The notes beneath the pieces are model-generated. The model was not told where the DNA came from, ran no database searches, and worked only from the letters and a program-made list of their open reading frames with translations. Shown here one piece after another: positions 6,544 through 63,989 of a stretch of DNA of 64,000 nt (position 1 is its first letter; each line of letters opens with the position of its first letter). Origin of the DNA: a candidate division Kazan bacterium GW2011_GWA1_50_15 (lineage in GTDB: Bacteria; Patescibacteriota; Kazan-3B-28). Made by a program: the position numbers and the translations under genes. Location of the stretch: contig CP011216.1 of the NCBI GenBank assembly GCA_001029795.1, positions 279,128-343,127 on the forward strand, written 5' to 3'.

Positions 6544-6653
6544 ATAGGCATAGCATACAGTATGCAGGGGTTAGTATCTAGTCAAGAAACCAGCTTCTGA
6601 CGCTGGTTCCTGATGCTCCCCCGTATTAGATACTAGATACTGAATGCTAGATA

Positions 6654-6836
6654 CTATTTGGTTTCTTTATGCGGAGTGCGTTTCTTGCAGATAGTGCAGA
6701 ACTTGCTCCGCTCCAAACGATCCGGGGTGTTCTTAGGGTTCTTGCGGGTTGAGTAAGACGCCCGTTTGCAGACGGTGCACATCAGCTTGATAATGGGGCG
6801 CTTAACTTTTCTGGTGACTTTGCCTTTTTTGGCCAT
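6654..6836 (-). CDS. rpmG: 50S ribosomal protein L33
   Basis: 60 aa with a CxxC...CxxC Zn-ribbon (CTVCKR...CTICKK), typical of L33. Confidence 0.85.
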
Positions 6837-6894
6837 AGGAGTGGTATATCCTGATCCGCCAGCTGGCGGAAAGTTCAGGATGACAATATGAGGG

Positions 6895-7650
6895 TTATAC
6901 TTTCTTAACCTGCAGGAAGTCCAGTTCTACTGGGGTTTCACGGCCGAAGATAGAGACCAGCACTTTGATCTTGCCGCGCTCTTCATCCACCTCGGAAACC
7001 GTGCCGTCGTAGTTCTTGAAGGGACCGTCGTTGATGTGAACCAAGTCTCCCACCCGCAGGTCGATCTTGTACTTGGGCTCCTCCACCGCCATCCGTTTGA
7101 GGATGGTCTTAATCTCGGTATCGGAGACGGGCACCGGCACTGTACCGGAACCGATGAAGCCGGTAACATTCGGGGTATTGCGGACGACATACCAGCTATC
7201 TTCCGTCACGTTCATATTCACCAGCACATAGCCGGGAAAGATCTTTTTCTCCACGGTCTTGCGCTTGCCAGCCCGGATCTCGATCTGGTTCTCTTTGGGG
7301 ACTAGCACGTCAAAAATCTTATCCTGCATATCCAGGGAAGCGATACGCTGTTTTAAGCTCTCGGCCACCGCATCTTCGTAGCCGGAGTAGGTGTGCAGAA
7401 CATACCATTGGCCCGGCCATTTGGTGCTGGCAGTGGAGGCGTCCACCGCCGGAGCGATGGTCGGCTCGGGAGCGACCTCCTCCTCGTCCTTTTCTAAGGT
7501 ATCTCCTCCGTTCGTCGGAGAATCATTATCAGCGATCTCTTCTGGTCCCGGGGCTGGCGCCGCTTCCTCCATTGGTACTACATCATCCCCTATGACAGGG
7601 GTCGCTGTCTCGTCTGCGGGCTGGATGGGTTCTAACTGATCGTCGTTCAT
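6895..7650 (-). CDS. nusG: Transcription antiterminator NusG with a ~75-aa acidic N-terminal extension
   Basis: The NGN domain ([11 protein letters not shown]) and KOW ([18 protein letters not shown]) are recognisable. The N-terminal 75 aa are D/E/P-rich low complexity. Confidence 0.9.
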
Positions 7651-7658
7651 AAAACTAC

Positions 7659-7919
7659 TTATTGGGCTGGTGTGGTTTGGATGTCCCCAACATTGATGTC
7701 GGGGGCGGTAACGGTTTGGCCGCTGGAGCTTTGCGACAAGGTGGTCAGATATTTAACTCCGGCAGTGAACAGGTAGTCTACGCCGCCGGTAAAGATAGTA
7801 AACAACAACGAGATGCCCAACACGGCCAGCGTCAGGTTTATGACTGTGCGTTGGCTTGGCCAACTGACTTTGCTAAGCTCGGTCCTGGCTTCGTGCAAAA
7901 ATTTGATGATAGGTTTCAT
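7659..7919 (-). CDS. secE: Preprotein translocase subunit SecE
   Basis: 86 aa with a single C-terminal TM helix; it sits immediately upstream of nusG. Confidence 0.8.
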
Positions 7920-8060
7920 CCCAAATCAGAATAATGAATTATGAATAGTGAATTATGGATAAACCGTAAACCACAGAAAAAAGAAAGAGATTCTGAACGA
8001 TTAAGATTGATGCTTCTGATATTAACCATGATTCCTAATTCGTGATTCATGATTCCAGTA

Positions 8061-46238: not shown

Positions 46239-48296
46239 TCAGTTTACTTGTATAATATCGACCCCGACGCTCAGATCGGCATTTAGCTCCCCATTAAACA
46301 ATGGTTTGGTTTTAGTACCAGCTTCGTCAGCAATACCAAGTGCTGGCGACAGCTTCAGCACACTAACTAGTGTGGTATTGTTGGCTCCTGGCTGTTTCAT
46401 CACATCAAGCTGGTAGTGACTAGTAACTTTGTGAGGCAAACGGTAGTTCACCGTAACGGTCTGGCTCGCACCTGGCTGGGTGGTGAGCCAAAGCCCAAAA
46501 ATGGTTTTATCCCCTTCTTCGATTTGGTCTACCTCGGTGCCATAGTCTTCTCCATCAACCGATATGCGCAGACTACCTTGAGGCACATAGATACGGATGT
46601 AGTCCTTATTGGGACCATCGGGGAAAACATTAACGCCGGTGTGGGTATACTTAAGTTCCACTGACACCGTCACGTCTCCGGTCAGATTCACGTTGGCTGT
46701 GTGATGGATTTCCTCGGCTACTACTTGACTGCTTTTGCGTCCACCGAGATTAGATCTGACCACCGCCAGAAAATCTCCGCCAGTATCGACCGGGACCGTC
46801 CCGGCGACTTGGAGCTGTTCCATCACCGACTGCATTTTAGGACTTCTCATATACAACATCACGTCCTTAGACCCTAACCGAGCCAGGAGGGCCGAACTGA
46901 TCCGCTTCATCTCTTCGCCATTGGCATTTAAGAGTCGGCCTAGAAGTATCGGCGCAAACTCATTTAAGACTTCTTTGGGATTGGCTTTGTCTTTGTCGAT
47001 CAGTTCGATCTGCGCTTGGGTGGCAGTCACAAAGTTATCGGCGGTCAGGGTGAGATCCTTGCCGGCCAAATAGGTTGGTCCAAAGATAGTTAATAAATCT
47101 TTGATCGCCTCGGGATCAATAGCGATAATCCCATCGGCAGTGCCGCCGCCTGCTTCCTCATAGAGCTTTTGGAAAGTTTGAGCCGAGGTCGGGAAATCTA
47201 AGTACCAATTAGCGTCGCGGGTACCGAACGAGGATGTAATGGTCGTAAGCGGCGCCGGCAAAGGCAGTGAGGTGTTGGGGTTTTGACCGTCGATGCGCTG
47301 GGTCATATCGACTAACACGCTTTTGAGTTGACCTTTGTAAACTTCAACCAACATGTAACTCCCAACAAACCCACCGGTAGCTCGGAGTTCGTTATTGTTT
47401 TGATTCAATATCAAATATTGTCTAGGATTATTAAAACCTAGTGCGCCGGGGAGCTCTTTGGCCAGAGTCGCCAGAGTCATAACGGTCGCCTGGAGGGTGG
47501 CAGTTTTAGTTTGAGCGTCGGCGAGCGCTGTGGCATATGCTGGGTCGACTAGGGCTGGGTTAACCGACGCCAACAGAAGATTGGCACGCGAGACTTGGGT
47601 TAACACTCGGTCAAGATTTTGCGAGCTCTTCCCCATCAACCCAACGATCTGAGTTGCTAACTGCTGCGGCTGGTCATTAGCACTCTCTAACCCGTTAAAG
47701 TACTGCCAAGTTGGGGTGAGTGTGTCGACTAGGGTCCGCCCGGCTTGAGCTAGATTATAGCCGCTGTCGATCAGCTTCTGACCAGCGACTACTTTAGAGG
47801 TATCGCTGCCCAACCCAGACAGATAGAGGTTAGTCTGCCCAAGACCGAGAAGTTGTTTTTGGGCTGTGCCAAACAGATTTTCGGCAGCGATGAAGTTGTC
47901 ACGAGCGGCCGAGACATCTTGAGCTAAAACAGCCGCTGAAGCTGCTTCGAGCTTGCTCATCCCCCGACCTGCCAGTTCAGTGATTTGACCCTGGACGCTG
48001 CCCGCTGCTTGAGAGACTAGACCGCCGCCAACGTACAGGGCGATTGCCAGCACCGCTAAGATAGCCAAGCGCAGTCCCATCCACAGCCAAGACAGCGCTG
48101 GGGCCGATACGGCCGCTTCGCCGAAGCTCATGTCGAGCGTGGAGCGGGCGACCTTACGCGTCCGGACCGCCGGGGATAACCCAGGTTCACGAAAGCCCAC
48201 CCCCGAGGCGGTTTTTGGTTTGATGTAATAGTATCGCTTAGTCCCCTTTGGCATGAGCCGCTTGTTCAATGACCGCCAACGTCTGATGGGCAGCAT
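46239..48296 (-). CDS. DUF4012 domain protein (N-terminal TM, large extracytoplasmic domain); start uncertain (alternative Met at 48131)
   Basis: 685 aa; the core RQYLILNQNNNELRATGGFVGSY...DGIIAIDPEAIKDLL is diagnostic of DUF4012, which is often found beside polysaccharide/glycosylation genes. Confidence 0.75.
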   Translation of the reverse strand: MLPIRRWRSLNKRLMPKGTKRYYYIKPKTASGVGFREPGLSPAVRTRKVARSTLDMSFGEAAVSAPALSWLWMGLRLAILAVLAIALYVGGGLVSQAAGSVQGQITELAGRGMSKLEAASAAVLAQDVSAARDNFIAAENLFGTAQKQLLGLGQTNLYLSGLGSDTSKVVAGQKLIDSGYNLAQAGRTLVDTLTPTWQYFNGLESANDQPQQLATQIVGLMGKSSQNLDRVLTQVSRANLLLASVNPALVDPAYATALADAQTKTATLQATVMTLATLAKELPGALGFNNPRQYLILNQNNNELRATGGFVGSYMLVEVYKGQLKSVLVDMTQRIDGQNPNTSLPLPAPLTTITSSFGTRDANWYLDFPTSAQTFQKLYEEAGGGTADGIIAIDPEAIKDLLTIFGPTYLAGKDLTLTADNFVTATQAQIELIDKDKANPKEVLNEFAPILLGRLLNANGEEMKRISSALLARLGSKDVMLYMRSPKMQSVMEQLQVAGTVPVDTGGDFLAVVRSNLGGRKSSQVVAEEIHHTANVNLTGDVTVSVELKYTHTGVNVFPDGPNKDYIRIYVPQGSLRISVDGEDYGTEVDQIEEGDKTIFGLWLTTQPGASQTVTVNYRLPHKVTSHYQLDVMKQPGANNTTLVSVLKLSPALGIADEAGTKTKPLFNGELNADLSVGVDIIQVN

Positions 48297-49419
48297 CTGT
48301 CCAATTGAATTGGCGAGCGCGTAATCTACCGCGTTCGATCAGCCGCTGGCGCAAGATCGGATCGTTTATAATCGTTCGCATATGCTCGGCCAAACCGGCC
48401 ACGTCTGTTGGGGCGATGGTGAGCGCAGCATCTCCCGCCACTTCGGGCAGAGCCGAGACATCGCTGGTAATGACCGGGCAGCCGCTAGCAAAAGCCTCTA
48501 GCACCATTAGGCCGAAACCTTCGTAAAACGAGGGGAAGACCAACGCTGTGGCTGAAGCCAACAGAGCGATCTTTTCAGCCTCACTGACTTGCCCGGTAAA
48601 GACTATCCGTGTCTGCAAACCCAGATCTTGCACAAGTTGATAAAGGTCTGACGAAAGCCAACTTTTACTGCCAGATACTACCAGATTTATTGTATCAGAA
48701 TAACGCTGCTGCAGTTCGTGCATAGCTCGGACTATCAACTGCAGATTTTTACGAGGTTCGACACTGCCGACGTAGTAGAAATAGCGTGCTGGGACCTGGA
48801 ACTTCTCTTGCACTAATGTGACTTGCTGGGGCGTGGGCGGGACAAAATACTCTTCGCCTACTCCTTCATAGACACGAACTATCTTGCCCTCTGGCACGTG
48901 CAATAGACGGACCAGATCTTGTTTAGTAGATTCAGATACAGCAATGACCCTATCCGAGGTGCGCGCCTCGTAAGGATAATTCATCTGCCATTGCCAGATA
49001 CGGGATGAGAGCGGGTAGAACTGGGGGTAGATATAAAATATTAGATCATGAAAGGTCGTTACCTTAGCGCATCGTCTCGAGAGTGGCAGCAACATAGGCG
49101 AAGGCATCCACATGACGTTAAGTCCCCCGCAAACAACGTCTGCCTTGGGCCAATCCAATGGCTTAAAGACCGCGTGCAAGAGGATAGGAAAGTTCACCCA
49201 GCGCAATTTTTTTACCTCCACATTGGCAGCCCGCAGATAGGGCTGCTCGGCCAACAGTTTATCAAGGCGTTGGTCGATATCCTTGTACGATACATAGAAC
49301 AGTACATATGTATTGCGAGTATCGATAGCTAACAAGTGGCGCAAGAGCTGCAGAGTGTACTGTTCAACTCCGCTGATCTTGCCAGTCAGTAAGCCTCTGA
49401 TATCGACTCCGATGCGCAT
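48238..49419 (-). CDS. Glycosyltransferase family 4 (GT-B); start placed at MRIGVDIRG
   Basis: YYVGSVEPRKNL...SFYEGFGLMVLEAFASGCPVITSDVSALPEVAGDAA. The track ORF (to 49491) would overlap the upstream GT4 gene by 62 nt. Confidence 0.8.
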   Translation of the reverse strand: MRIGVDIRGLLTGKISGVEQYTLQLLRHLLAIDTRNTYVLFYVSYKDIDQRLDKLLAEQPYLRAANVEVKKLRWVNFPILLHAVFKPLDWPKADVVCGGLNVMWMPSPMLLPLSRRCAKVTTFHDLIFYIYPQFYPLSSRIWQWQMNYPYEARTSDRVIAVSESTKQDLVRLLHVPEGKIVRVYEGVGEEYFVPPTPQQVTLVQEKFQVPARYFYYVGSVEPRKNLQLIVRAMHELQQRYSDTINLVVSGSKSWLSSDLYQLVQDLGLQTRIVFTGQVSEAEKIALLASATALVFPSFYEGFGLMVLEAFASGCPVITSDVSALPEVAGDAALTIAPTDVAGLAEHMRTIINDPILRQRLIERGRLRARQFNWTDAAHQTLAVIEQAAHAKGD

Positions 49420-49429
49420 ACGTGGTGAA

Positions 49430-50584
49430 TTATGAATTAGGGGTTGGGGCTGACAGTCGGGACAGATGTTCGGCCCATTGGGTTTCGACAAATTCCCGTA
49501 TCTGCCGTTGGAAGTGAGCCTGGTCGAATTGCTCGGCGTGAGCCCGGATTATGGATGGCGAGAAACTCACTAGCTCGAACCGACGGACAGCGTCCGCTAA
49601 CGAGCCTGGGGACTGTTCAGAGAAGAAGATGCCGGTCTGGCCTTCTACTACAGTTTCCAGCGCCCCGCCCGCTCGGTAGGCTATCACTGGCTTACCGGCG
49701 GCCATGGCCTCCAGGGGGACAATACCGAAGTCCTCTTCCTGCGGGAACAACACAGCCTTGCATCGCAGAAACTGCTGGGCGGTCTCTTCGTCTGACAACC
49801 GACCCAAAAATTCAGTCTTGGGAGAGCGGGCTAGTTTTTTGAGGCGGGCTATCTCCGGCCCTTCGCCGATAATCTTCAGCGGCAGTCCCAATCCATTGAA
49901 TGCCTGCACCGCGATATCGGTGCGCTTGTATCCGATCTGCCGGCCGACTACGAGATAAAAATCACCGGGGGTACTTTCACCTTGGAATCTAGCAAAGTCT
50001 ACCGGCGGGTAGATAACCGTGGATTCGCGCTCATAGTATTTTTTTATCCGTCCGGCAGTATTTTTTGAGTTAGCTACGAATACGTCCACTCGGTCAGCGG
50101 CAACTCGGTCCCAGATGCGTAAGCGATGCACCAGCGAGGGCATAGCCAATTTTATTAATGGGTCTAGAACCCCTAACTGCTTTTGGCGCAGATATTCATG
50201 GTAGTGACTCCAATAGTAGCGAGTGGGGGTGTGACAGTAGCAGATATGAAGGGTTTCTGGCTTAGTCAAAATCCCCTTAGCCTCGGCGTGGGCCGAGGAG
50301 GTCACTAGGTCGTAGCCGTCTAGGTTAAACGATTCGAACACGGCCGGCCGAATGGCCGGAAAGAGTTGCTGTTTGTAGCGGAGGGGTGACTTTTGCAGAT
50401 AACTCGTAATGACCCGCCGGCCGCGGAGCTCCGGAAAGGCCTCGGCCTTAAACACTGATGTAAAGATATCGGCCCTAGGGAAAATTTCGGCAAAGTTTAA
50501 AATGACGCGTTCGGCCCCGCCTCGACTGGTCAGCCAGTCGGCCACGATCGCTACCCTTAATTCGTCAAATTGTTTCATCCCCAT
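49430..50584 (-). CDS. Glycosyltransferase family 4 (GT-B)
   Basis: 384 aa; EDFGIVPLEAMAAGKPVIAYRAGGALETV with the E-x7-E motif. Confidence 0.8.
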   Translation of the reverse strand: MGMKQFDELRVAIVADWLTSRGGAERVILNFAEIFPRADIFTSVFKAEAFPELRGRRVITSYLQKSPLRYKQQLFPAIRPAVFESFNLDGYDLVTSSAHAEAKGILTKPETLHICYCHTPTRYYWSHYHEYLRQKQLGVLDPLIKLAMPSLVHRLRIWDRVAADRVDVFVANSKNTAGRIKKYYERESTVIYPPVDFARFQGESTPGDFYLVVGRQIGYKRTDIAVQAFNGLGLPLKIIGEGPEIARLKKLARSPKTEFLGRLSDEETAQQFLRCKAVLFPQEEDFGIVPLEAMAAGKPVIAYRAGGALETVVEGQTGIFFSEQSPGSLADAVRRFELVSFSPSIIRAHAEQFDQAHFQRQIREFVETQWAEHLSRLSAPTPNS

Positions 50585-50621
50585 TCTCCATCATTCATGA
50601 TTCATCATTCATAATTCGTGC

Positions 50622-52001
50622 TTAATAGCTCCCCTTCCGGGTTAAGACCGCGCCGATGGTCTGCAGGATAATTTTAATATCAAGAAGTGGCGACCAGTGT
50701 TCAATGTAGAAAGTATCGAGCCCCACATACTCGTCGAACGAGATATCGCTCCGACCGGAGACCTGCCACGGGCCGGTCAGACCGGGCTTAACCAATAACC
50801 GGCGGCGGGCGGCATCACTATACTCTGCCACTTCGTTGGGTAGCGCCGGCCGGGGACCGACCAAGCTCATCTCGCCTTTCAACACATTAAACAACTGGGG
50901 CAGTTCATCTAAGCTGGTTTTACGAATAAACTTACCCACGCGGGTTATCCGCGGGTCATCTTTGAGTTTAAATAACGGGCCATCCGCCTCGTTGCGTTCC
51001 CTAAGTTCCTCCAGCATCCGCTCGGCCCGCTCGCCTCCCAGCCCCGGACTCATCTCGCTGTACATCGATCGAAACTTATAAAAAGTGAACGGTTCGCCCA
51101 ATTCGCCAATCCGCTTCTGGGCATAGATCACTGGGCCTTTCGAATCCAGTTTAATAGCAACAGCGACCACCGCCATTACCGGCAGAGCCACGACCATTCC
51201 GATACATGTAGCCCCGATATCAAATAAACGCTTTGCTACCCTCCCCCAGCCAGAGAGCGGAGTAGGTGAAAGTTCGATAATGGGATAGCCTACCAATGTG
51301 TCCACCGTGATGTGGGAGGTGTAGAGACCAGTCAAGCTTGGCACATACTGCAGAGTCACATCGTGGTCCTCACACCAGCGAATGAATTTTAACATCTGTT
51401 CGCCGGTAAGTTCATGGCCGATAATGACGCGATCAGGCCGATGCTGGGCCAAGACCGAGAGGTCCAGCTCGGCCATCACTCCAACTAGTTTCTGCCCCGG
51501 CTGCGCGGATCTGACTTGGCCGCCCAAATCATCAGCCATCTTCCCGCTAGCGATCAGGGCAACTCGCTCAACACCAGTGCCGGCGTACTGCAGCCACTGT
51601 TTGAAGTAGTTGACTATGGCTCGGCCTAGAAGTACGAACACTACACTAAACACCCAGAAGTAGGTCACGATCAGGCGCGAGAAGAAACTGGTCTTGGCGA
51701 TAAATAAACCGATAACAAAAACGGCCAATGCCACCGAAGTGGCGATCAAGACCTTCCCGGCCAGCTCCCAAGGGTTCCTAAACCCGCGGAATCGGTACAA
51801 CCCAAACCCAAAGAACGACACTAGCCAGAGAGGGGCCAACTCCATCACCAACCGGAGGTAGTCCGGAAATGGCAGAATATAGATGATAGGCACAAATTGC
51901 CACTGGAGCCGGAGCCAGTAGGCGCCAACAAAAGTCAGTACCACCATGACATAATCGAGCGGTACCAATAGCAGGGTGAAAAATTGATTGAATCGTCTCA
52001 T
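50622..52001 (-). CDS. Polyprenyl-phosphate sugar phosphotransferase (WbaP/PssY-type bacterial sugar transferase); start placed at MRRFNQ to clear tRNA-Val
   Basis: C-terminal catalytic domain ...YKFRSM...DELPQLFNVLKGEMSLVGPRP...KPGLTGPWQVSGRSD. The track ORF (to 52073) overlaps the tRNA. Confidence 0.85.
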   Translation of the reverse strand: MRRFNQFFTLLLVPLDYVMVVLTFVGAYWLRLQWQFVPIIYILPFPDYLRLVMELAPLWLVSFFGFGLYRFRGFRNPWELAGKVLIATSVALAVFVIGLFIAKTSFFSRLIVTYFWVFSVVFVLLGRAIVNYFKQWLQYAGTGVERVALIASGKMADDLGGQVRSAQPGQKLVGVMAELDLSVLAQHRPDRVIIGHELTGEQMLKFIRWCEDHDVTLQYVPSLTGLYTSHITVDTLVGYPIIELSPTPLSGWGRVAKRLFDIGATCIGMVVALPVMAVVAVAIKLDSKGPVIYAQKRIGELGEPFTFYKFRSMYSEMSPGLGGERAERMLEELRERNEADGPLFKLKDDPRITRVGKFIRKTSLDELPQLFNVLKGEMSLVGPRPALPNEVAEYSDAARRRLLVKPGLTGPWQVSGRSDISFDEYVGLDTFYIEHWSPLLDIKIILQTIGAVLTRKGSY

Positions 52002-52028
52002 AAAATCTAAGCCCCCAGACCGGCTCTC

Positions 52029-52105
52029 TGGTGGGCTCGCCCAGATTCGAACTGGGGACCTTCCCCACGTCAAGGGAACGCTCTAACCAACTGAGCTACG
52101 AGCCC
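52029..52105 (-). tRNA. tRNA-Val (anticodon GAC)
   Basis: Acceptor GGGCUCG/CGAGCCC, D-arm GCUCAGUUGGUUAGAGC, anticodon loop UUGACGU, T-loop UUCGAAU, CCA encoded. Confidence 0.85.
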
Positions 52106-54130: not shown

Positions 54131-56569
54131 GTGGTAAAAATGAGGTTTGCCCTCTTGGTAGTCATTCTTTTGGTGGGCTGCCAGAGTGGCGGCCCCAAAG
54201 TTGCCGGTGCGCCATCGAAAATTGTCGATGGTGATTTGGTCGCCTCGCTCACCCAGCAGTTCTGGGCGGAGCGGGAGAGAATCATCTCTGGCGGCATCCA
54301 ACCGCCACCGGGAGCCGACCAAGTAACTGATTTGGTTTGTGACGGCACAACTCTGACTTGGTCCTATGTTAATCTTGGTGACTACAACCAAGACGGCGAG
54401 GCAGGTATCGCCGACCTTACTTCCATCGCCCTGCATTTTGGGCACAAGCAGGATCCGGCATTCCCGGACTTGCTGGACGAGGTCATCGACGGCGATAAAA
54501 GTACAGAGGTCGGCGTTTCTGACATTACTCCTATCGCTCTGAACTATTTGGCGACCGTTGCCAGATATTCCATACAGGGGGCTAACGCTCCCGATGGAAG
54601 TTTTGGCGAGGTCGGCAGTATCAGCCGTTCGGCCGGCAGTGGGTTAGGTCGGTTGCAGTTTGTAGCCGAACTCCCTGTTACCGAACTGTTGTTCTTCCGG
54701 ATAGTTCCGGTCGACGGTGGCGGCTCGCTCGGAGCCCCGTCCAATGTAGTGGCGGGACCGAACGCTAGGCCAGTCATTACTACGATCTATGTGGAGCCGA
54801 CCGAGACCTACACCGGCCAGCCGGTCACTTTCTCAGCTGAAGTTAGCGGCACAGAGCCGTTCTTCTACGGCTGGGATTTTGCCGGAGCAACTAATCCTCT
54901 GTCCTCCGCCGAAACCTCCCCTACGGTCACCATTACCGCCGGGGTCGGTATCTACAATGCTACCCTCACAGTCGCCAACGAATATGGCGAAAGCGAGTTC
55001 GGATTTCCCATTGATGTGCGGATGCCCGTCCCGCCTGACATTGTTGAAATTATACCGACATCGGGCGTGGCAGGGACACAGATAACATTCCAGGCCACCA
55101 TAACGGGTGAACCAGCCCCCGCTTATGCGTGGGATTTTGGTGGAGCGGCTATCCCTAATATCTCTGCGGATATATTCCCAACCGTAACCCTGTCCGCGAC
55201 CGACGATTATACGGTGTCACTCACGGTTACCAATTTGGCCGGAGAGGGTAGCTTACAATTGCCGTTCGTCGTCGTTCCCCCGCCACAGCCGCCGGTCATT
55301 TCCGGCGTGACAGCGCCGAACGGTATTGTTGGCACCAACGCAAGTTTCAGCGCGACGGTGAGCGGCGACGAACCCCTCACCTACGCTTGGGATTTTGGTG
55401 GCGGCGGGCTACCCAATACCTCCGCTGACACTGACCCGGTTATAACTTGCGAGACGGTCGGCAATTTCAACTGCCATCTTGAGGTTAGTAACGCGGTTGG
55501 CACGGATGGATATAATTTCTTCTGGGAAGTCCGTGGGGGGACTTGGAATGCGGTGTCTTTAGGAGCGATCGGACGCGGCACCGCACCGATCATTGCCTAC
55601 GGTTACCCGGCCGTGGCCTACACTGATGGGCAAACCACCGAAGTCAAATTCGTTCGAGCAACCGATCCATTCGGCGACGCTTGGGGAACAGCTACCACCG
55701 TCGCCAATTGGGGCAGTGGTCTGTCGGCTGTGGCGGTTAACGGTCATCCAGCCATTGCTTTCTACGCTGATGATGCTTTGCATTATATTAGGGCGTTGGA
55801 TGCGGAGGGCAGTAGTTGGCCACTCACCGACATTGTCGTTGACAGCGGCGGTTGGCTATTATTGCCTTCACTCATAGTCGTCAATGGCAATCCGGCCGTG
55901 GCGTATTATGACTACGCCAATGAGCGAGTCAAATACGCTCGAGCCGCTGACGGTGACGGTGACACTTGGGGTTCACCCCAAGTCATCGACGATGGGCTTG
56001 GTATCTACGGCGGCCAACCGACGCTGGCAATGGTTAATGGCCAGCCAGCCATCGCCTACGCCGATTACACTGCGGGGGTGCTACAGTTCGTGCGCTCGAT
56101 TGACGCGTACGGCGACAACTGGAACGCTCCCCTCGCACTGGACGGTGAGGGCTACTCTCCTCGCATCGCCACAGTGAACGGCCAGCCAGCCGTTAGTTAC
56201 ATTACCGGTAGCGGAGCATTGAAACTCATCCGCTCGATCGATGTGGATGGACAGAACTGGGGTCCATCGACCGAAGTGGTGGCGGCTCCCGGCGGCGAGT
56301 GGGTGTTGGGCAAGCACTCACTAGCTATTATCGCCGGCCGGCCGGCCATTGCCTACGCCATGAACACGACCGGAACCCCGCAGGAACGGGATATTCGGTA
56401 CATCCGGGCGTCAAACACCGAGGGCACCGACTGGAGCGAAACAGCAAGTCAGCTGTGGCCGCTTGGTGGATTTGAGCCGGGATTGGCCAGTATCGGCGGC
56501 CGGCCAATGGTCACTTTTTCCATCCCCGGGCCGGGAGTCGAACCCTTGTTCGTCGCGCACCTCGAATAA
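54131..56569 (+). CDS. Large surface lipoprotein: dockerin-like Ca-binding repeats + 3-4 PKD-like domains + C-terminal BNR/Asp-box beta-propeller
   Basis: 812 aa; lipobox LLVGC. Dockerin-like GDYNQDGEAGIADLTSIAL and DGDKSTEVGVSDITPIAL. Three ~85-aa repeats carry WDFGG/YAWDFGG (PKD signature). The C-terminal half has 6-7 repeats of NGxPAxAY...IR..D..G..W (DGDGDTWGSP, DAYGDNWNAP, DVDGQNWGPS). Confidence 0.7.
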   Translation: MVKMRFALLVVILLVGCQSGGPKVAGAPSKIVDGDLVASLTQQFWAERERIISGGIQPPPGADQVTDLVCDGTTLTWSYVNLGDYNQDGEAGIADLTSIALHFGHKQDPAFPDLLDEVIDGDKSTEVGVSDITPIALNYLATVARYSIQGANAPDGSFGEVGSISRSAGSGLGRLQFVAELPVTELLFFRIVPVDGGGSLGAPSNVVAGPNARPVITTIYVEPTETYTGQPVTFSAEVSGTEPFFYGWDFAGATNPLSSAETSPTVTITAGVGIYNATLTVANEYGESEFGFPIDVRMPVPPDIVEIIPTSGVAGTQITFQATITGEPAPAYAWDFGGAAIPNISADIFPTVTLSATDDYTVSLTVTNLAGEGSLQLPFVVVPPPQPPVISGVTAPNGIVGTNASFSATVSGDEPLTYAWDFGGGGLPNTSADTDPVITCETVGNFNCHLEVSNAVGTDGYNFFWEVRGGTWNAVSLGAIGRGTAPIIAYGYPAVAYTDGQTTEVKFVRATDPFGDAWGTATTVANWGSGLSAVAVNGHPAIAFYADDALHYIRALDAEGSSWPLTDIVVDSGGWLLLPSLIVVNGNPAVAYYDYANERVKYARAADGDGDTWGSPQVIDDGLGIYGGQPTLAMVNGQPAIAYADYTAGVLQFVRSIDAYGDNWNAPLALDGEGYSPRIATVNGQPAVSYITGSGALKLIRSIDVDGQNWGPSTEVVAAPGGEWVLGKHSLAIIAGRPAIAYAMNTTGTPQERDIRYIRASNTEGTDWSETASQLWPLGGFEPGLASIGGRPMVTFSIPGPGVEPLFVAHLE

Positions 56570-56635: not shown

Positions 56636-59600
56636 TTAAATAATGGTGATAGTCAGGGTACCACTGTAGTCGCCCACCGTGCGGGACTCGAGATCAGCTA
56701 GGTCAATGGTCGGTAAGAAATAGAAACCGCCCTTGCCGTTGATATAGGTACTACCCGGACCGGTATAGGCGTTCCTGTCAGCATCCAGCGTGGCGCCAGT
56801 TTGGCCGGTCATATCGGTTTTGCTGGATGCGAATGAGCCGTTTAATACTGTAGTCGTTGATTTCCAAGTAATGTCGGTACCGGGGATGGTGTCGCCGCCA
56901 CCGCTTTTCGGCATCGACATTGAGCCGACCGATACAGTGTAACTGGTTTGATTGCCTCGTTTATCCCAGAAGACAAATTCCTCGCCAGCCTCGAAGGGAT
57001 AACTTAGTGTCCCCCCACCGCCCTTGGTGTAAGCCCCTAAATAAACATCGGCCGGGGCGGTAGCCATCTCCAGATCGGTGGCCGCCGAGGTGGTCAGCGC
57101 TGGATAACTATTGTTCGAATCCTTTGACACTGTCGCCCAACTGCCACCGGCCGCGGCGCTGTTTTCCATATATTGCAGACGGAAATAATAGGTAGTACCG
57201 GGCGCGACTATCACGCCGGGATTACGTTGGATAGTAAACTCGTGTTCGTAGTTGGTCGAGGCCGCCGGGTCAAAGGTACTTCCCGACCCAGCCCCGGTGC
57301 CGGAATCCTCATTGTGCCGCCCGGCCGTGGGCGAGTTGTTAGTCAGCCGGACATTGACGATGGCGTCGTCATCGGTCACGTTGGCTCCATTGTAGTAGCG
57401 CCAGGCTACCGTGTTCCCGCCCTGCGCCTCGACATCGGTGGCACCAGTAAAGCTGGTTGAGGTATCGAACTGGAGTTTGTATTTCACATCCGTCGCACCC
57501 ACGCCGTTGGCTTCGCCCACCACAACCCGTAGTTTGATGGCATTCCCCGGGTAAACAATGCGAGTGCTGCTGGGTGGGGTGCTGGTCGAATCATTGTCTT
57601 CATCGCTCAAGGCATCTCCGGTTGTCGTCTCGCCGCCATTAGTGGTATTGGGGTCGGCCACATCTTCGGCGTCGAACCAACGCCAGTTTTTGGAGCCGGG
57701 TTTGTAGGGCTTGCTTTTAGCGATGACCGTGTCAACATAGGTCGGTAAATTATCAGTGTCGGCAATGGTGACCGGCGCGCTGTGTGTATGGTCGTCCACC
57801 GCTATAGTCACGCCGGGCGGCGGGGCGGGCATATCGAAACCGGCCGATGACGAAGCGCCCCCGGTCGTAATATCGGAAACCGTGTGGCTATGCGAACTAG
57901 CCCCGCCCGAGCCGTCGGCGGTATACGATGATTGAGCCTCTAGATACCGGCGGTTGAAAGTCTGCGAGCTGCCGGAACTTACCGTCCAAGCGCTCCCGGG
58001 GTCGGCCGTGAACATCGCTACCAGATTAGCCGGGATAGCACCCGTGCTATCCTTTTTGCCCATGATCACCTCAACATGAATCGGTACATGGTTACCGGTG
58101 GTCGAAGTGCCGCTACCGGTATGATTATGGGCGGCGGCGGCTCCAGTAAAAGGCGGTCCGGTTGTACCGCCCACGGCACCGCCGGATGTGACTGTGCCAC
58201 CAGTGAGCGTGATGTCGTGATCGTGGGCAGTGTTTGACCCGCCGGTGGTTTCCCCATCCGGCCCGCCCCGAACAAAAGTATTATCCTGTGCCGAGTATCG
58301 TGTCCAGCCAGTTGGGACAGTAGCATCGAACATGGCAATGATGTTTTGCGGTAGCGTGCTGGGCATCCCGCTGTCGTACTGGACTACCTGTAATTCGCGG
58401 TAAGACGGTAACAAACTCTTAGATGAGGCTGTGGCACTCCAACTGTGCGTGTGTTGATCGCCGGCCACTGTGGTGCCCGATTGGGAGATGCTCAAAGACA
58501 AATTGTCAGTAATCGTCCCTGGCGTGGCGGTGGGGGTATGGGTATCGGCTCCGCCCCACGGACCGTAAGCTGAATTGCCTCGCGGGAATTTTTGGTAAAA
58601 GATATCGGTCGCGTCATTGGAAACCGAGCTCCACCCCGCTGGCATCGTGATCAATGTCCCATCCCAAAACAACATCATTCTAACCTCGGCGATATCCAGA
58701 GCCGACGTGTCGGTGAAATTGACTCCCAGCATATCGGCGTTGGCGCTATCATACCAGGTAGCAAATATCTTATACGGCGTAACGCTCCCGGCTCGAACAT
58801 AGATATAGTTGCCAGCGGAACTGCTGACCGGTCCCTGCTCGCTCCCCCAGGTTGAGCCGCCAGTGGTGGATTTTTTGTAATAGACACTCATCGAGCTGGC
58901 TACCGTACCGCGCAAATAAAAGGCGTAAAGATCGCCATTCTGCTGGTCGATGGCCACAGCGCCACCAAGTCCGGCAGTACCGATGTCGGTGTAGACATTT
59001 GTGTTGGTACTCCAACTCCTACCCGACTCGTCGTACCAATAGGTTTCAATGTCCCCGCCACTAGTGGCCGGATCGTTATTGCCCACCACATAGATGTCGC
59101 CGGTATTTTTGTTTAGTGCCCCGCCCCAGGCCACATCGTAGGTGGTGTGATAGGCAAAACTACTATCGATGGTGGTCCAACTCCCGTCCCAGGTTGGCGC
59201 GCTAGCATCGTAGACCATCGAGACTAGATCGGTGGCGCTGGTATCGTGAACCACTATCATCACATCTCCGCCAGACAGCGGGAAGATCTGCCCGTGGTCG
59301 ATGCCGCCAGCCATAGAAAAGCCGGTATCGCTCCAACTACTGCCACCAACGTCGGCTGCCGAGTAAACTTTGTAGCTGGCCGTGGCATCGCCCCAGAACC
59401 ACAGTGCATACAATTTGTTGTCGGTAGACTTGATAATCGAGGGCGATCCGCCCGAGGCATAGACCATGTCAACCGTGTTGTCGCCTATCTTGGTCCAGGT
59501 CGTGCCGGTGGGTGAGAGAGTGTCGCTAGCAGTATCTAGCCGCTTGAAATAGACATCGTCATCGTTCGTACCCGCCGTTTCGTGGGCCACCATATAGATA

Positions 59601-59974
59601 TAAGTGCCGCTGGTGTCCCCCGGCGTCCACTGGTCGTACCAGACGGCAATGTCCATCCAATCTTGGTCAGTCCCTAGCTCCACCTCTCCGCCCCAACTGG
59701 CGCCACTATTGGTGGTTTTTTTGTAAGCGGGCGTATCGGTGGTGTCATCAATATAAAAAGCGTAGCCGGTAGTATCGGACACCCAGACCACCGATGGGCT
59801 GGGACCGTACTGGCCAGTCAGATTGAATAGATCGCCGTTGATGGTGATTTGGGTGGCTTGGGCTGGCAGGACATTGAATCGCAGAGGGGCGAATTGAAAC
59901 CCGCCAAACACCATAACTACCGTCAAGACAACGGTCATCAATCGCCCGATTGTACCTATCCATCTCCTCTTCAT
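56636..59974 (-). CDS. Giant secreted protein: N-terminal BNR/Asp-box beta-propeller, central Gly/Thr-rich region with repeated His-x-His motifs, C-terminal Ig/FN3-like beta domains
   Basis: 1112 aa; signal peptide. Asp-boxes TTNSGASWGG, SAADVGGSSWSD, STTGGSTWGS. HxH repeats AHDHDITLTGG, AAHNHTGSG, NHVPIHVEV, SSHSHTVSD, DDHTHSAPV. Confidence 0.7.
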   Translation of the reverse strand: MKRRWIGTIGRLMTVVLTVVMVFGGFQFAPLRFNVLPAQATQITINGDLFNLTGQYGPSPSVVWVSDTTGYAFYIDDTTDTPAYKKTTNSGASWGGEVELGTDQDWMDIAVWYDQWTPGDTSGTYIYMVAHETAGTNDDDVYFKRLDTASDTLSPTGTTWTKIGDNTVDMVYASGGSPSIIKSTDNKLYALWFWGDATASYKVYSAADVGGSSWSDTGFSMAGGIDHGQIFPLSGGDVMIVVHDTSATDLVSMVYDASAPTWDGSWTTIDSSFAYHTTYDVAWGGALNKNTGDIYVVGNNDPATSGGDIETYWYDESGRSWSTNTNVYTDIGTAGLGGAVAIDQQNGDLYAFYLRGTVASSMSVYYKKSTTGGSTWGSEQGPVSSSAGNYIYVRAGSVTPYKIFATWYDSANADMLGVNFTDTSALDIAEVRMMLFWDGTLITMPAGWSSVSNDATDIFYQKFPRGNSAYGPWGGADTHTPTATPGTITDNLSLSISQSGTTVAGDQHTHSWSATASSKSLLPSYRELQVVQYDSGMPSTLPQNIIAMFDATVPTGWTRYSAQDNTFVRGGPDGETTGGSNTAHDHDITLTGGTVTSGGAVGGTTGPPFTGAAAAHNHTGSGTSTTGNHVPIHVEVIMGKKDSTGAIPANLVAMFTADPGSAWTVSSGSSQTFNRRYLEAQSSYTADGSGGASSHSHTVSDITTGGASSSAGFDMPAPPPGVTIAVDDHTHSAPVTIADTDNLPTYVDTVIAKSKPYKPGSKNWRWFDAEDVADPNTTNGGETTTGDALSDEDNDSTSTPPSSTRIVYPGNAIKLRVVVGEANGVGATDVKYKLQFDTSTSFTGATDVEAQGGNTVAWRYYNGANVTDDDAIVNVRLTNNSPTAGRHNEDSGTGAGSGSTFDPAASTNYEHEFTIQRNPGVIVAPGTTYYFRLQYMENSAAAGGSWATVSKDSNNSYPALTTSAATDLEMATAPADVYLGAYTKGGGGTLSYPFEAGEEFVFWDKRGNQTSYTVSVGSMSMPKSGGGDTIPGTDITWKSTTTVLNGSFASSKTDMTGQTGATLDADRNAYTGPGSTYINGKGGFYFLPTIDLADLESRTVGDYSGTLTITII

Positions 59975-60073: not shown

Positions 60074-61294
60074 TCACTTCCTCCCTCCCGGCCGATACAG
60101 CGAAGTTCTGCCAGAAACTAGATACCGCCACCATGCCGGCATGGGTTCGCGTCGTCGTTTTTCGGATAATTCACTCGGCGACAACAACCCCACCGGAATA
60201 AACAACTTATCTCCTGCGTTAATGGCGTGCGGCCAAGTTAACTGATTAAACCGGATCAGCTGTTGCGGCAGAACATTGGTATGCTCCGCAATGTGCATTA
60301 CCGTCTCGCCTTTTTGGACAGTGTGCGTAATTGTCTTCAGGCGATACTTCCGTCGGTCCAGCCACCACACCCACCAGCGGTACTTCAGCCAAGCCAGCCC
60401 CAACCCTAAGAGCCACCAGCCAAGATATTTGGTTCCCACCCAAAAGCTAAATTTATATTCGAACCGTTCGTCCGGCAATTTTTTGACCGTACCGTCTAGT
60501 TGCACTTCGTCCACTGTCCAAGTGTGAGCTACAACCGCAATCCGGTAGTAGCCGAATTTGGGCGCTGGTCTATCCCACACTTTGGTAATGTTCATCACAC
60601 TCCCCGGCAGATAGGTACCATTCTCATTCATCTCTTCGGTACGACTGCCGAATATGCCCTGCAGTTTAATATCCAGCGCTGGCTCAATGTTGATATTGCT
60701 CTCGTTCTTGGCGGTGATGTTAAAAGTTAGTCCGCTTTTGTCAATTTTGTAATCAACTTTATCAAAACTAAGTTTGCGGGTTATCTCCCCCGGCACGGTG
60801 ATATATACCCGAGCCCCGACTCGGATCTGGAAATTGATGTTGCCGCCGGCTTGACCGCCCGCTCTTTCATAAATCACAATCCCACCACTGTGCTGACCCG
60901 GCCCGGTGTCCCCCGGCACGGTAATAGTAAAGGGGACCTCGGCGCTGGTATTCGGCGCCAGTATCAAGTTAGTTTGCTCTAATTTAATCCAGCTCCCCAC
61001 CTCCCGATTATCGGCGGCGGTTTTCACCAGTGTATATCCGCCCTCGGTGGTATTGACGGCATCAAGCGCTTCCACAACCACGGATTTAGTTCTGGGAGAA
61101 TTATTATTAATAACTAATGTGTCGGTCGTACTCTCTCCCGGCCGGAGAGTATGGACAAACCAACTCCGGGGTGGCTGGCCCTCCACTGGCTTAGGGATAA
61201 CCCCCACCCCACCGGTTTGGGCCAACGCAAAAATTGGCAGCCACCATGCTGCCAAAACTGCCGACAGAGCCATTCCGATCACAGGTTTAGTCAT
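60074..61294 (-). CDS. Surface protein paralog 1: signal peptide - ~300-aa beta-rich domain (DUF916-like) - TM helix - one C-terminal LysM
   Basis: 406 aa; SP MALSAVLAAWWLPIFALAQT, ...PRSWFVHTLRPGESTTDTLVINNNS..., TM WWLLGLGLAWLKYRWWVWW, LysM HTVQKGETVMHIAEHTNVLPQQLIRFNQL...GDKLFIPV. Confidence 0.65.
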   Translation of the reverse strand: MTKPVIGMALSAVLAAWWLPIFALAQTGGVGVIPKPVEGQPPRSWFVHTLRPGESTTDTLVINNNSPRTKSVVVEALDAVNTTEGGYTLVKTAADNREVGSWIKLEQTNLILAPNTSAEVPFTITVPGDTGPGQHSGGIVIYERAGGQAGGNINFQIRVGARVYITVPGEITRKLSFDKVDYKIDKSGLTFNITAKNESNINIEPALDIKLQGIFGSRTEEMNENGTYLPGSVMNITKVWDRPAPKFGYYRIAVVAHTWTVDEVQLDGTVKKLPDERFEYKFSFWVGTKYLGWWLLGLGLAWLKYRWWVWWLDRRKYRLKTITHTVQKGETVMHIAEHTNVLPQQLIRFNQLTWPHAINAGDKLFIPVGLLSPSELSEKRRREPMPAWWRYLVSGRTSLYRPGGRK

Positions 61295-62769
61295 CGCTTC
61301 CGTTGGCGCTTATTGGATTTGGGCGGGATTTTAATTTGCTGGCCCGGCCGCAACTTATACGGCGGCTTAATTCTGTTGTATTCGGCCAGCGCGGTCATCG
61401 GCACACCGGCAAAATCAGCTACATCCCCTAAAGTGTCTCCAGTTTCAGCGATTAATACCGTGGGCTTAGCTGAACCCCCGGAACGACCGGGTTTGCCTAG
61501 TGTATCCACCATCGCATGGGATGTGCGCCGACGGAAGAGGTGCCCAACAATACTCAACGCAAATTCCTTATCCGAGAACATCTCCCGCTGTTTGACGGTC
61601 CATTCGGCCCCGCGATGATATCCAATCGGCACCAACAGTACATCCCCAGTTTTAAGTTCGTAAGGCCATTTCAGCAGATTGAACTTAGCCAATACCCGCG
61701 CATCCACTCCCAATTTGTTAGCCACCTTCATCAAGGTATCGCCGCTGACCACTTTGTACATCTCGGTCTTCACCCGCAAGCGCCGCATAATAATGGTGTA
61801 CAGCCACACCGATCGGATAAGATAGAGCACCAGTACGACCAGCAGAATGGTCATCAGCTCGCGCCACGGCCAGAGCCAGAAAATGTAGGTTTGCTTAATA
61901 ATCTCATCCGGCAACATTGTCTTGGTGCCGTCTTTGTTAAACTGCTCCTTCTCGCCCGTGTGGATGTCGAACTCAGCTTTGAATCTCCCAAAATAAGCTG
62001 CCCGCTTCATCCATTTTACATCCACATTCTTGGTCTCACCGCGGGAGACGGCGGTGGTCTGAACGGCCTCTTGTTTACCGACACTACCAAATATCCCCCG
62101 TATGGTGGTATCAATGATTGGAGCGATGGCTACGTTGCCATGGTTAGAGACATTAAAGGTAAGGAATAGCGCTCGCCGATTGCCGTAGTCAATCCGGTGA
62201 GTGATTTTATTGATCTGCAGATCGCGATTGATCTCACCCGGCACATTTACTACTAGCATTGCACCGATATGCACTCGCACCTTTACTCCTCCACCCTTGG
62301 TCTCGCTCGGCGGGGACTTTTCTTGGATGAAGATACCGCCGACATGCTCCCCTACATTGGCAGTTGATGGAATTTTTAAAGTCAGCCCGATCTGAACCGC
62401 GCTATGGGGGGCTAGGGACACTTCACTACGGTCCAACTCTAGCCAATAGCCCGGCTCGGGTTTTTCTGGCGTGTCGGCTCCGGCTTTGACAATATTATCT
62501 TCCTCATCAACCGTATAGCCGGACGGGAAGATCAGGACGGTGGCGGCCTCGTCTTTATTGTTATTAATGATCATCTGGTCTCGCACCTCGGTGCCTTCAG
62601 CCGCGGTATAGATGAACCAACTTCTGGCCTTACCTTCTTTGTCTGGTACCGGAAAGATGGACAGCCCACCTACACCCAAAGCGTTGGCTGATGACGCACC
62701 CACAAACAGGCCCAAATTCAGGGCCAATAGCCACCAACCGAATTTCTGCTTCAATCGTAAACCGGCCAT
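61291..62769 (-). CDS. Surface protein paralog 2: signal peptide - DUF916-like domain - TM helix - two C-terminal LysM domains
   Basis: 492 aa; same architecture as 60074-61294 (ARSWFIYTAAEGTEVRDQMIINNNK...), TM LMTILLVVLVLYLI, LysM1 YKVVSGDTLMKVANKLGVD, LysM2 VLIAETGDTLGDVADFAGV. Confidence 0.65.
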   Translation of the reverse strand: MAGLRLKQKFGWWLLALNLGLFVGASSANALGVGGLSIFPVPDKEGKARSWFIYTAAEGTEVRDQMIINNNKDEAATVLIFPSGYTVDEEDNIVKAGADTPEKPEPGYWLELDRSEVSLAPHSAVQIGLTLKIPSTANVGEHVGGIFIQEKSPPSETKGGGVKVRVHIGAMLVVNVPGEINRDLQINKITHRIDYGNRRALFLTFNVSNHGNVAIAPIIDTTIRGIFGSVGKQEAVQTTAVSRGETKNVDVKWMKRAAYFGRFKAEFDIHTGEKEQFNKDGTKTMLPDEIIKQTYIFWLWPWRELMTILLVVLVLYLIRSVWLYTIIMRRLRVKTEMYKVVSGDTLMKVANKLGVDARVLAKFNLLKWPYELKTGDVLLVPIGYHRGAEWTVKQREMFSDKEFALSIVGHLFRRRTSHAMVDTLGKPGRSGGSAKPTVLIAETGDTLGDVADFAGVPMTALAEYNRIKPPYKLRPGQQIKIPPKSNKRQRKR

Positions 62770-62778
62770 GCGGACCAG

Positions 62779-62805
62779 ATTATATTTTTACCTTTTCATT
62801 TTCAA
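62779..62805 (-). promoter_or_regulatory. Promoter candidate TTGAAA-15-TATAAT directly upstream of the paralog-2 ATG (leaderless)
   Basis: Revcomp of 62779-62784 is TATAAT, 8 nt before the start codon at 62769, with no SD. The 15-nt spacer is short. Confidence 0.35.
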
Positions 62806-62822
62806 CTAATTAACCGCTATTT

Positions 62823-63989
62823 TCAAGATGATACTTTGCGCCAGACCACGGCCAGCGCGTCACTGTAGACCGCCTCCCAGCCACCACTGTCATTCAGATA
62901 TTTATTCAGCGGTCGCCCGCTGCCGGTGAAGACAGTATCAACCTGCCATTTTGCCAATGTCACCAATGAGGTTTCGGCGTCATTGATATTACTGATGTTT
63001 TTGAACTCATCAAAGATTTTAACTGTAGGTGTCGTCCAGATGGCCATGCGCCCGTCAATGAATACTTGCCTCTCCGGCAACTGCCAGACCAAATAGCCGC
63101 CCCAATTGTATTCGTTGTACATCCGCTCTCCTCCGGGATGCTCTTTCAGATACTGGACAGCGTCATAAGGGTAGCCGTAGGATCGGCCATACACCGCCGG
63201 ATCAAACATCACCGGCGAAAGTCGCGCCCACTGCCATGCCCCCACTCCACCGACCACCAGCACCAGTCCCAGTACCCCGACCGTGGTCTGGAGGAGCTTT
63301 GGCATACCGTGCCTGAGCACCCCGTCCAGTTGTTCGGCCAAAAGCGGCATCGCGGCGATCGCGAAAAGGGGCAGATGGCGCCAAGCGGTTGTACTGATAA
63401 AAAATACCGTAATGGCCAACACCAGCTTGGTCAGATCGAACTTCCAATGATTCGCCCATAGCAACCCCAGCAACAGAATAACTACTAGTACTACATTGTA
63501 ACTACCGACATTGGTCAAACTCAGCGGTAGCCATTCGGAGATATTGGCCAATACATCTTTGTCGGTGAAGGTCTGCCATAGCTCCAGATAGACCCGCCAG
63601 CCATTGGGGTTAAATAAAGTAGCTACCACACTCACGATCGCCACCCCGGCCAATTGCCACAGTTGGCGCCAATTGAGTAGTTCGACAGATAAACGGGTTG
63701 GCTTTTTACCCCGTAAGATGTGCCGCAGTACCTCTCCCGCCCAGAAAATTCCGATAATCAAAAAGCCGGCCGAGAATCCGCCGTGCAGGTTTGCCCATGC
63801 TGCAAAAATTAGCGGGAGCCAGTAAATTAATTTACTGACGGGTTGGCGGCGCCAAGTGAACAGAAGATAGAGTACCCCTACCAACCCCAACAAGGTGAAC
63901 ATTTGCGGCCGCACCCCCACCACGAACCACGACACCAAGAATCCAGCCAGTGCGACAATAATTCGAATTAGCGGCGAGGTCTTCACCAC
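62823..63989 (-). CDS. Polytopic membrane protein, GT-C-like (PMT/ArnT/DUF2079-type) glycosyltransferase candidate; N-terminus may continue beyond the window
   Basis: 388 aa (in window); 8+ TM helices then a soluble C-terminal domain (YGYPYDAVQYLKEHPGGERMYNEYNWGGYLVW). Confidence 0.55.
   Translation of the reverse strand: MVKTSPLIRIIVALAGFLVSWFVVGVRPQMFTLLGLVGVLYLLFTWRRQPVSKLIYWLPLIFAAWANLHGGFSAGFLIIGIFWAGEVLRHILRGKKPTRLSVELLNWRQLWQLAGVAIVSVVATLFNPNGWRVYLELWQTFTDKDVLANISEWLPLSLTNVGSYNVVLVVILLLGLLWANHWKFDLTKLVLAITVFFISTTAWRHLPLFAIAAMPLLAEQLDGVLRHGMPKLLQTTVGVLGLVLVVGGVGAWQWARLSPVMFDPAVYGRSYGYPYDAVQYLKEHPGGERMYNEYNWGGYLVWQLPERQVFIDGRMAIWTTPTVKIFDEFKNISNINDAETSLVTLAKWQVDTVFTGSGRPLNKYLNDSGGWEAVYSDALAVVWRKVSS

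Follow-up and report, generated by a model that had tools for sequence, protein, structure and literature searches.

A candidate phage fibre-tip fold in single-chain, pseudo-trimeric form, with paired HxH motifs, in a predicted surface protein of a Kazan bacterium

The subject of this study is an open reading frame (ORF) in a 64,000-nucleotide stretch of DNA from the candidate division Kazan bacterium GW2011_GWA1_50_15 (contig CP011216.1, positions 279,128 to 343,127; this whole stretch is called the window, and coordinates are given in its numbering). The ORF, at 56636-59974, encodes an 1112-residue protein with a block of repeated His-x-His (HxH) motifs. The gene is read from the minus strand, the plus-strand translation of the same interval being full of stops, and the start assigned here is the first ATG within the stop-to-stop segment 56639-59983. 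The whole protein gave no match in Pfam or PHROGs (both searched to E ≤ 1) or in NCBIfam (searched to E ≤ 0.01). The exact sequence is missing from a collection of 15 billion proteins in which neighbours, e.g., AKM84816.1, are present; the public annotation of 56636-59974 may use another start codon or split the gene. The ORF and its parts are as follows.

56636-59974, minus strand: whole ORF, 1112 residues plus stop
59855-59974, minus strand: residues 1-40, putative N-terminal signal peptide or membrane anchor (MKRRW...VLPAQA), judged from its sequence
58691-59854, minus strand: residues 41-428, divergent BNR-like domain, probable beta-propeller, assigned by transitive homology
57680-58690, minus strand: residues 429-765, HxH triplet block of three contiguous modules, defined by profile searches, conservation and AlphaFold2
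58349-58690, minus strand: module 1, residues 429-542
58532-58540, minus strand: module 1 rung 1, decayed H479-T-P481, found by homologue comparison
58445-58453, minus strand: module 1 rung 2, H508-T-H510
58031-58348, minus strand: module 2, residues 543-648
58217-58225, minus strand: module 2 rung 1, H584-D-H586
58121-58129, minus strand: module 2 rung 2, H616-N-H618
57680-58030, minus strand: module 3, residues 649-765
57884-57892, minus strand: module 3 rung 1, H695-S-H697
57782-57790, minus strand: module 3 rung 2, H729-T-H731
57095-57679, minus strand: residues 766-960, beta-rich domain opening with a WRWF motif, recognized from sequence features, no library match
56639-57094, minus strand: residues 961-1112, probable WxL-like cell-wall-association domain, ending ...GDYSGTLTITII, assigned by BLASTP

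The protein has five true HxH motifs, at residues 508 (HTH), 584 (HDH), 616 (HNH), 695 (HSH) and 729 (HTH). A preliminary description of the locus had also listed five; four of these were correct, but the remaining one, NHVPIHVEV, is an HxxxH (His629/His633) found at module 2's LPPY position, which is not conserved, and the true HTH at 508 had been overlooked. Comparison with homologues exposed a sixth, decayed motif, H479-T-P481. For a protein of this composition, with 19 His residues, chance alone gives 0.30 HxH motifs on average in 20,000 composition-preserving shuffles, with five or more at a rate of 5 in 100,000 shuffles (P ~5e-5). It is the conservation of the motifs, described below, rather than the shuffle test, that provides strong evidence of their importance. 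The segment was also described as rich in Gly, Thr and Ser, which it is (T 14%, G 12%, S 11%), but the whole protein is rich in them too. The range of ~560-760 suggested earlier for structure prediction cuts off module 1, the unit being 429-765.

The block consists of three contiguous modules of ~110 residues, ~335 residues in all, and each module has two HxH positions, which we call rung 1 and rung 2. The pattern of a module is I-A-x-F-D ... P-x-G-W ... F-x-R-G ... T-G-G-x-x-[HxH] ... ~29 residues ... [HxH] ... L-P-P-Y-x-x-V-I. The six closest homologues, proteins of ~500 residues with 35-41% identity and other flanking domains, have an equivalent block with six HxH motifs. To define the family, 21 single modules were used as a profile in an exhaustive search of 1.84 billion cluster representatives (50% identity clusters), which matched 2,535 proteins at E ≤ 1e-3, 1,045 at ≤ 1e-10 and 429 at ≤ 1e-30. 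No Pfam model covered the block in the 64 members scanned, and the partner domains found in the family are of extracellular types: DUF2341, Ig-like, fn3, LamG, PEGA and CARDB. In alignment A4, Pfam Gp53-like_C (putative C-terminal domain of tail fibres) is matched by one family member, at E 5e-8, and YmaF by one, at E 5e-7.

Module number was determined in a sample of 196 proteins, made up of the best 150 of the 2,535, the six close homologues, the 1112-residue protein itself and 40 genomic loci. There were exactly three modules in 166 proteins and six in 26, and the remaining 4 were fragments or were split by an insertion. Inside a triplet the linker between modules has a median length of 0 residues. 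Where a protein has two triplets, a spacer usually separates them (median 181 residues), with the triplets adjacent in at least one protein. A fixed copy number is a hallmark of closed rather than open repeats. Further, each of the three slots has its own consensus signature. In 145 of 150 cases the nearest module in other proteins occupied the same slot, and identity was 35.4% between same-slot modules of different proteins vs 30.4% between different slots of one protein. Because the slots keep their signatures and find their nearest neighbours in kind, we take the triplication to be an old one, and the unit of evolution to be the triplet rather than the module. A description of an HxH triplet unit was not found in the libraries or the searchable literature, which is no proof that none exists.

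To follow the His residues, we used 163 clean triplets (489 modules). At each of the four motif columns, and in every slot, His is present in 89-100% of modules. Rung 2 is complete, with 6/6 His, in 147 of the 163 triplets, and all 163 have at least five. Rung 1 is looser: all three motifs are intact in 101 triplets, one is broken in 55 and two are broken in 7. The broken motifs listed nearly always keep one of their two His residues, and a rung is rarely below 5/6. A recurrent rung 1 variant is HxP, which occurs in slots M1 and M3 and never in slot 2; the 1112-residue protein has it in M1, and its distribution suggests a tolerated, asymmetric five-His form of the outer site. His losses within a rung were not correlated, with 7 same-rung pairs observed vs 9.4 ± 2.6 expected (P 0.87), so that the test gives no support either way for cooperation between modules; the pattern would suit a site able to do without one ligand, and is not proof of inter-module cooperation. 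The most variable part of the module, in sequence and in length, is the loop between the rungs, with 24-39 residues and an entropy of 3.3 bits vs 1.7-2.3 for the core. The invariant columns of the module include neither conserved acidic residues nor other partners for catalysis.

AlphaFold2, run with 64 sequences, predicted the block as one all-beta unit with a predicted local distance difference test (pLDDT) score of 87.8 and a predicted template modelling (pTM) score of 0.84, 231 of 344 residues scoring at least 90. (A run with just 7 sequences gave pLDDT 39.5 and was unusable.) In the model the three modules have an identical strand order, and the inter-rung loop has the lowest pLDDT. That the pTM is 0.84 across the entire block points to a fixed arrangement of the modules, rather than beads on a string.

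A Foldseek search of the PDB with the block model found nothing. Among predicted viral structures, the sole significant matches, which extended over the whole length, were Pas28 and Pas29 of the Actinoplanes phage phiAsp2 (E 1.9e-13 and TMq 0.61 for Pas28, E 3.2e-12 and TMq 0.55 for Pas29); weak matches, at a TMq of about one third, were made to a tail fibre protein and, with probability 0.28 and TMq 0.32, to a "Phage tail collar domain containing protein". Pas28 and Pas29 are encoded in the tail region of phiAsp2, and in 2004 Pas29 was annotated as a possible receptor-recognising protein with HxH motifs. Each has 12 HxH motifs in three groups of four and is thus a single-chain triplet, and each is matched by the module hidden Markov model (E 6e-8 and 1e-14). 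A tblastn search of 50,697 sequenced phages with the block gave no match, the Pas29 triplet found only phiAsp2 in the same set at the BLAST level, and neither the 1112-residue protein nor the four cellular members tested matched the Pas29 family, phrog_5795. Triplet proteins on IMG/VR contigs lie in tail-fibre clusters and do match phrog_5795. One such contig, of 128 kb (L055), has an unusually large tail-module gene: at 400-7929 (plus strand) is a 2,509-residue ORF, followed by the viral triplet gene and then by a tail-fibre protein gene (phrog_6320, E 1e-33). Fourteen IMG/VR loci with a single-module match were considered as homotrimeric phage intermediates and were rejected, as all proved to be divergent triplets.

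Through Pas28 the modules can be tied, transitively, to homotrimeric fibre tips. Residues 1007-1130 of Pas28, its third module, match positions 388-526 of the phrog_1800 profile ("tail collar fiber protein"), and residues 336-525 of T4 gp12 match positions 385-545 of the same profile. In gp12 a Zn ion sits on the threefold axis, octahedrally coordinated by His445 and His447 of all three chains (PMC3004832), and we confirmed the HxH at residue 445 in the sequence. Direct alignment by HHalign of the 489-module profile with gp12 331-527 was weak (E 0.0033, probability 9.6%) and placed four motif blocks in co-linear order. The alignment of the module with the short tail fibre gp16 of Kuravirus SU10 (PDB 7z47 chain I) was no more than suggestive (probability 27-52%, E 1.4e-4 to 6.6e-4 over 90-95 columns), with both rungs and the LPPY in register. 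The authors of the SU10 structure propose that Fe2+ stabilises the fibre (PMC9509320), and gp16 is compared with the JUB59 receptor-binding protein. The SU10-type fibre matches the Pfam family Gp10_C (PF21939) at E 6e-9; the 1112-residue protein does not match it, nor does it match Pfam Collar (PF07484) or a tail-collar PHROG at E ≤ 1. Because the HHalign probabilities are below 55% and the link is only transitive, membership of the Collar or Gp10_C families is not claimed. There are good grounds, though transitive ones, for homology between a module and a single chain of a homotrimeric tip.

The first residues of the protein are basic and hydrophobic up to AQA and form a probable signal peptide. 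The N-terminal domain had been described as a sialidase-type Asp-box propeller. It has no strict Asp-box (S-x-D-x-G-x-T-W); what it does have are degenerate motifs, G-x-[ST]-W, at 91, 157, 211, 318 and 373, and it has no Pfam or NCBIfam match and no PDB sequence match. The BNR label itself is supported by transitive homology, since among the 65 homologues of the domain at least 11 carry PF13088 (BNR_2) and 2 carry PF15892 (BNR_4); in the protein P0176 the BNR_2 match is below the gathering score. The WRWF motif that opens the domain after the block has counterparts in many family members, in which similar W-R-W/F-R-F-Y starts come after the triplet. A domain opening W-R-W-[FY] or F-R-[FW]-Y, often right behind the triplet and with no library match, may be a fixed partner of it.

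At the C-terminus, the last ~110 residues match the WxL-like C-terminus of protein P0001 (GWTL...GNYTGTLTFTVI; BLASTP E 2e-6), strongly match the protein at locus L006, and weakly match the tail of P0176, which itself has a borderline PF13731 (WxL) match below the cut-off (E 9.5e-5). The 1112-residue protein does not match PF13731 or the WxL motif, the W of the motif being replaced (YTV, LTITII), and its C-terminus has no similarity to the ORF at 62823-63989. The genes next to it on the same strand are listed here.

60074-61294 and 61291-62769, minus strand: two genes for proteins with a WxL-interacting-protein peptidoglycan-binding domain (Pfam PF06030, WxLIP_PGBD) and LysM (PF01476)
62823-63989, minus strand: 388-residue ORF with no Pfam or NCBIfam match, co-conserved with the operon

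The two WxLIP_PGBD plus LysM genes are directly upstream of 56636-59974 and encode probable wall-anchoring partners of the triplet protein. Their homologues adjoin triplet genes at L005, L006 and L024 (E ≤ 1e-68) and, with weaker similarity, at L008, L009 and L015, and homologues of the 388-residue ORF are found upstream of the triplet gene at L005 and L024 (E ~2e-87). The operon at 60074-63989, together with the triplet gene, is kept in at least three other Patescibacteria genomes (L005, L006 and L024), and its composition suggests a counterpart, in the candidate phyla radiation (CPR), of the WxL/csc surface-complex loci of Firmicutes. The window is part of a chromosome of candidate division Kazan-3B-28, itself a CPR lineage, rpoB and EF-G being among the evidence for the assignment. 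All 40 genomic members start with a basic and hydrophobic segment, i.e., a signal or transmembrane segment, and many are longer than 3,000 residues. From the operon context, the WxL-like C-terminus and these N-terminal segments we infer that the protein is a wall-associated surface protein.

Several further observations concern the surroundings of triplet genes. Immediately downstream of the ORF, and convergent with it, is a gene at 54131-56569 (plus strand) for an 812-residue protein with PKD and Ig-like domains, a probable surface protein. A few kb further downstream, 46239-52073 (minus strand) encodes a DUF4012 protein, two GT4 glycosyltransferases and a Bac_transf sugar transferase; this envelope-polysaccharide cluster is possibly part of the same cell-surface region. 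At three other loci (L001 136-3685, L002 1494-4273 and L011 595-7254), the triplet gene follows genes for a SipW-like signal peptidase (Peptidase_S26) and a TasA/camelysin-like protein (Peptidase_M73), and the triplet proteins there have an N-terminal F-x-D-x-E-x-S motif. This association suggests export by, or assembly with, a TasA-type fibre system. Metagenome-assembled genomes of a "bacterium" (L007) and of Saccharibacteria (L008, L009 and L015) encode proteins of ~1,230-1,270 residues with two triplets and a conserved xYxTxxxFxAxxxY C-terminus, and WxLIP-like neighbours occur at the six-module loci L008, L009 and L015. Outside the CPR, the cultivated isolate Geobacter sp. AOG1 (L043, alongside which L030 is listed; NZ_BLIZ01000001.1 5869-10560) has a 1,564-residue member with one N-terminal triplet.

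In sum, we regard it as probable, if only just, that the block is a single-chain pseudo-trimer of the phage fibre-tip fold with two hexa-His metal sites, carried on the cell surface of this Kazan bacterium. Residues 429-765 would then be a compact all-beta domain made from three anciently triplicated ~110-residue modules, each the counterpart of one chain in a homotrimeric tip of the T4 gp12 type or of the Gp10_C type such as SU10, and the three would pack round a pseudo-threefold axis. Rung 2 (His508/510, 616/618 and 729/731) would coordinate one buried metal ion octahedrally, and a second ion would be bound by rung 1 (His479, 584/586 and 695/697; five ligands in this protein). These ions, by analogy Zn2+ or Fe2+, would staple the fold, and the hypervariable inter-rung loops of 24-39 residues would be an exposed specificity surface. 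The protein would be secreted and held on the cell wall by its WxL-like C-terminus and the adjacent WxLIP/LysM proteins. The triplet would thus be a rigid, metal-stapled recognition knob that acts, together with the BNR-like domain, in surface recognition or adhesion, a function to which the gene context points.

How the chains and the metals are arranged is where other explanations differ from the single-chain pseudo-trimer. The preliminary description proposed a gp37-like needle, i.e., a homotrimeric fibre in which each metal is bound by the same HxH of three chains and the sites follow each other in series. The fold does have phage tail relatives, and the HxH-metal sites of known phage fibres are inter-chain (PMC3004832, PMC11705849). 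A homotrimer nevertheless has no need of the three or six modules found in 192 of 196 proteins, or of slot-specific divergence, if three chains supply the symmetry. The block has two motifs per module and three tandem modules in one chain, which is confidently predicted to fold as a monomer. Further, the partner domains (BNR-like, Ig/fn3/PKD-type and WxL-like) are not characteristically trimeric, and the gp37 tip did not appear among all PDB chain sequences at E ≤ 10 in a phmmer search with the block or an hmmsearch with the module profile. Nor did a search of PDB sequences give a significant match when the query was the block, the module profile, the N-terminal domain or the Pas29 triplet. 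We consider a homotrimeric needle very unlikely. Less unlikely, but still improbable, are modules strung as independent beads, in which the two HxH motifs of each module form a 4-His site of its own, e.g., for tetrahedral Zn or Cu, with three sites per block. Each module does have exactly two HxH motifs ~29 residues apart, and His losses are independent between modules, as separate sites would predict. Independent domains, however, would need neither a fixed copy number of three, zero-length linkers nor slot identity, the pTM of 0.84 over 344 residues implies a fixed arrangement between modules, and the aligned homologue gp12 has a single HxH per chain, so that its site is necessarily inter-chain.

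The His residues might also serve some purpose other than structural metal binding. In a pseudo-trimeric beta fold they could form a buried His ladder, a hydrogen-bond network or a pH-sensitive switch, and the toleration of single His losses at rung 1 in ~38% of triplets would suit such a role. We think this quite unlikely given that HxH triplets bind an axial metal in every structurally characterised relative cited here (gp12, gp37 and the P2 spike apex), and that each rung keeps 5-6 of its 6 His almost without exception, in line with sets of ligands. HxH belongs to several catalytic metal motifs, and the genes around the ORF are cell-envelope genes, as might be expected if the block were a metallo-hydrolase or an oxidase that attacked the cell wall or glycans beside the BNR-like domain. 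A catalytic centre is, however, hard to reconcile with twelve His in a threefold-repeated pattern and invariant columns that lack acidic or catalytic partners. There is no similarity to an enzyme family in Pfam, NCBIfam or PDB, the only relatives being phage tail proteins. For want of both catalytic-family similarity and conserved acidic partners, the enzyme reading was rejected as extremely improbable.

Set against these alternatives, the single-chain pseudo-trimer keeps much of what the preliminary description saw. Its observation was largely right, and its interpretation, of metal-binding and phage-fibre-like motifs, was right in spirit: the His residues are conserved, the sole significant structural relatives are phage tail proteins, a Pas28 module and the C-terminal domain of gp12 match the same part of phrog_1800, and the two-rung layout is like that of the homotrimeric SU10 short tail fibre. 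The architecture was, on this reading, wrong, an intrachain pseudo-trimer taking the place of the needle. The related proposal of a fibre presenting a sialidase head is weakly supported: the N-terminal domain is BNR-like by transitive homology, and the block has a central position in the protein, with another beta-rich domain and a probable domain for wall association behind it.

Many CPR/Patescibacteria live attached to other cells. It is conceivable, though on balance doubtful, that members of this group display a single-chain, metal-stapled version of a phage receptor-binding tip, with hypervariable loops that recognise host cells or substrates. If so, the three faces became free to diverge once three chains had been fused into one, and in thousands of lineages a phage type of receptor recognition, adopted or shared, serves cells as a means of attaching to hosts. 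The triplet would then be a concrete candidate for surface recognition by episymbiotic ultrasmall bacteria, and a natural example of a homotrimeric viral fold turned into an asymmetric single-chain scaffold. HxH metal sites are already known from homotrimeric phage fibres. What appears to be undescribed is the obligate intrachain triplication of the HxH module, the size of the family (2,535 clusters at 50% identity, and an 1112-residue member without a Pfam, NCBIfam or PHROG match), and its concentration in secreted, often giant, CPR surface proteins. Because the ~335-residue unit is predicted to fold as a monomer, it should lend itself to expression and study much more readily than intertwined trimers do, and the member in the cultivated Geobacter isolate makes experiments feasible outside the CPR as well.

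Among known systems, Pas28 and Pas29 of phiAsp2 (phrog_5795, "tail protein") are closest in plan, having three tandem HxH modules per chain and a similar overall fold; they differ in having four rungs per module, three at a 7-residue spacing plus one, vs two here, and identity is ~20%. The T4 gp37 needle shares the chemistry in principle, HxH binding metal. As the passage on the needle in PMC11705849 describes it, the HxH side chains face the fibre axis and bind seven Fe2+. The needle is a homotrimer with ~7 HxH motifs in series along an elongated structure, and each polypeptide gives one HxH to each metal site, whereas here a compact, ~335-residue intrachain triplet has three homologous modules per chain and two HxH per module. 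The SU10 short tail fibre, like the modules, has two HxH pairs, ~35 residues apart, followed by a C-terminal L-P-P-[FY], and its inter-rung segment is variable as well; the fibre is homotrimeric, each chain having one module. T4 gp12, with its tail collar and "knitted" trimeric metal-binding fold (phrog_1800/phrog_910), has in co-linear order the hydrophobic strand, P-x-x-W, F-x-R-G, T-G-G, HxH and terminal hydrophobic strand of the modules. In contrast to them, gp12 has a long insertion behind the P-x-x-W element and is a homotrimer with one HxH per chain, while in the Kazan protein three diverged modules, with two HxH positions each, are fused in one chain and belong to a predicted cellular surface protein rather than to a virion.

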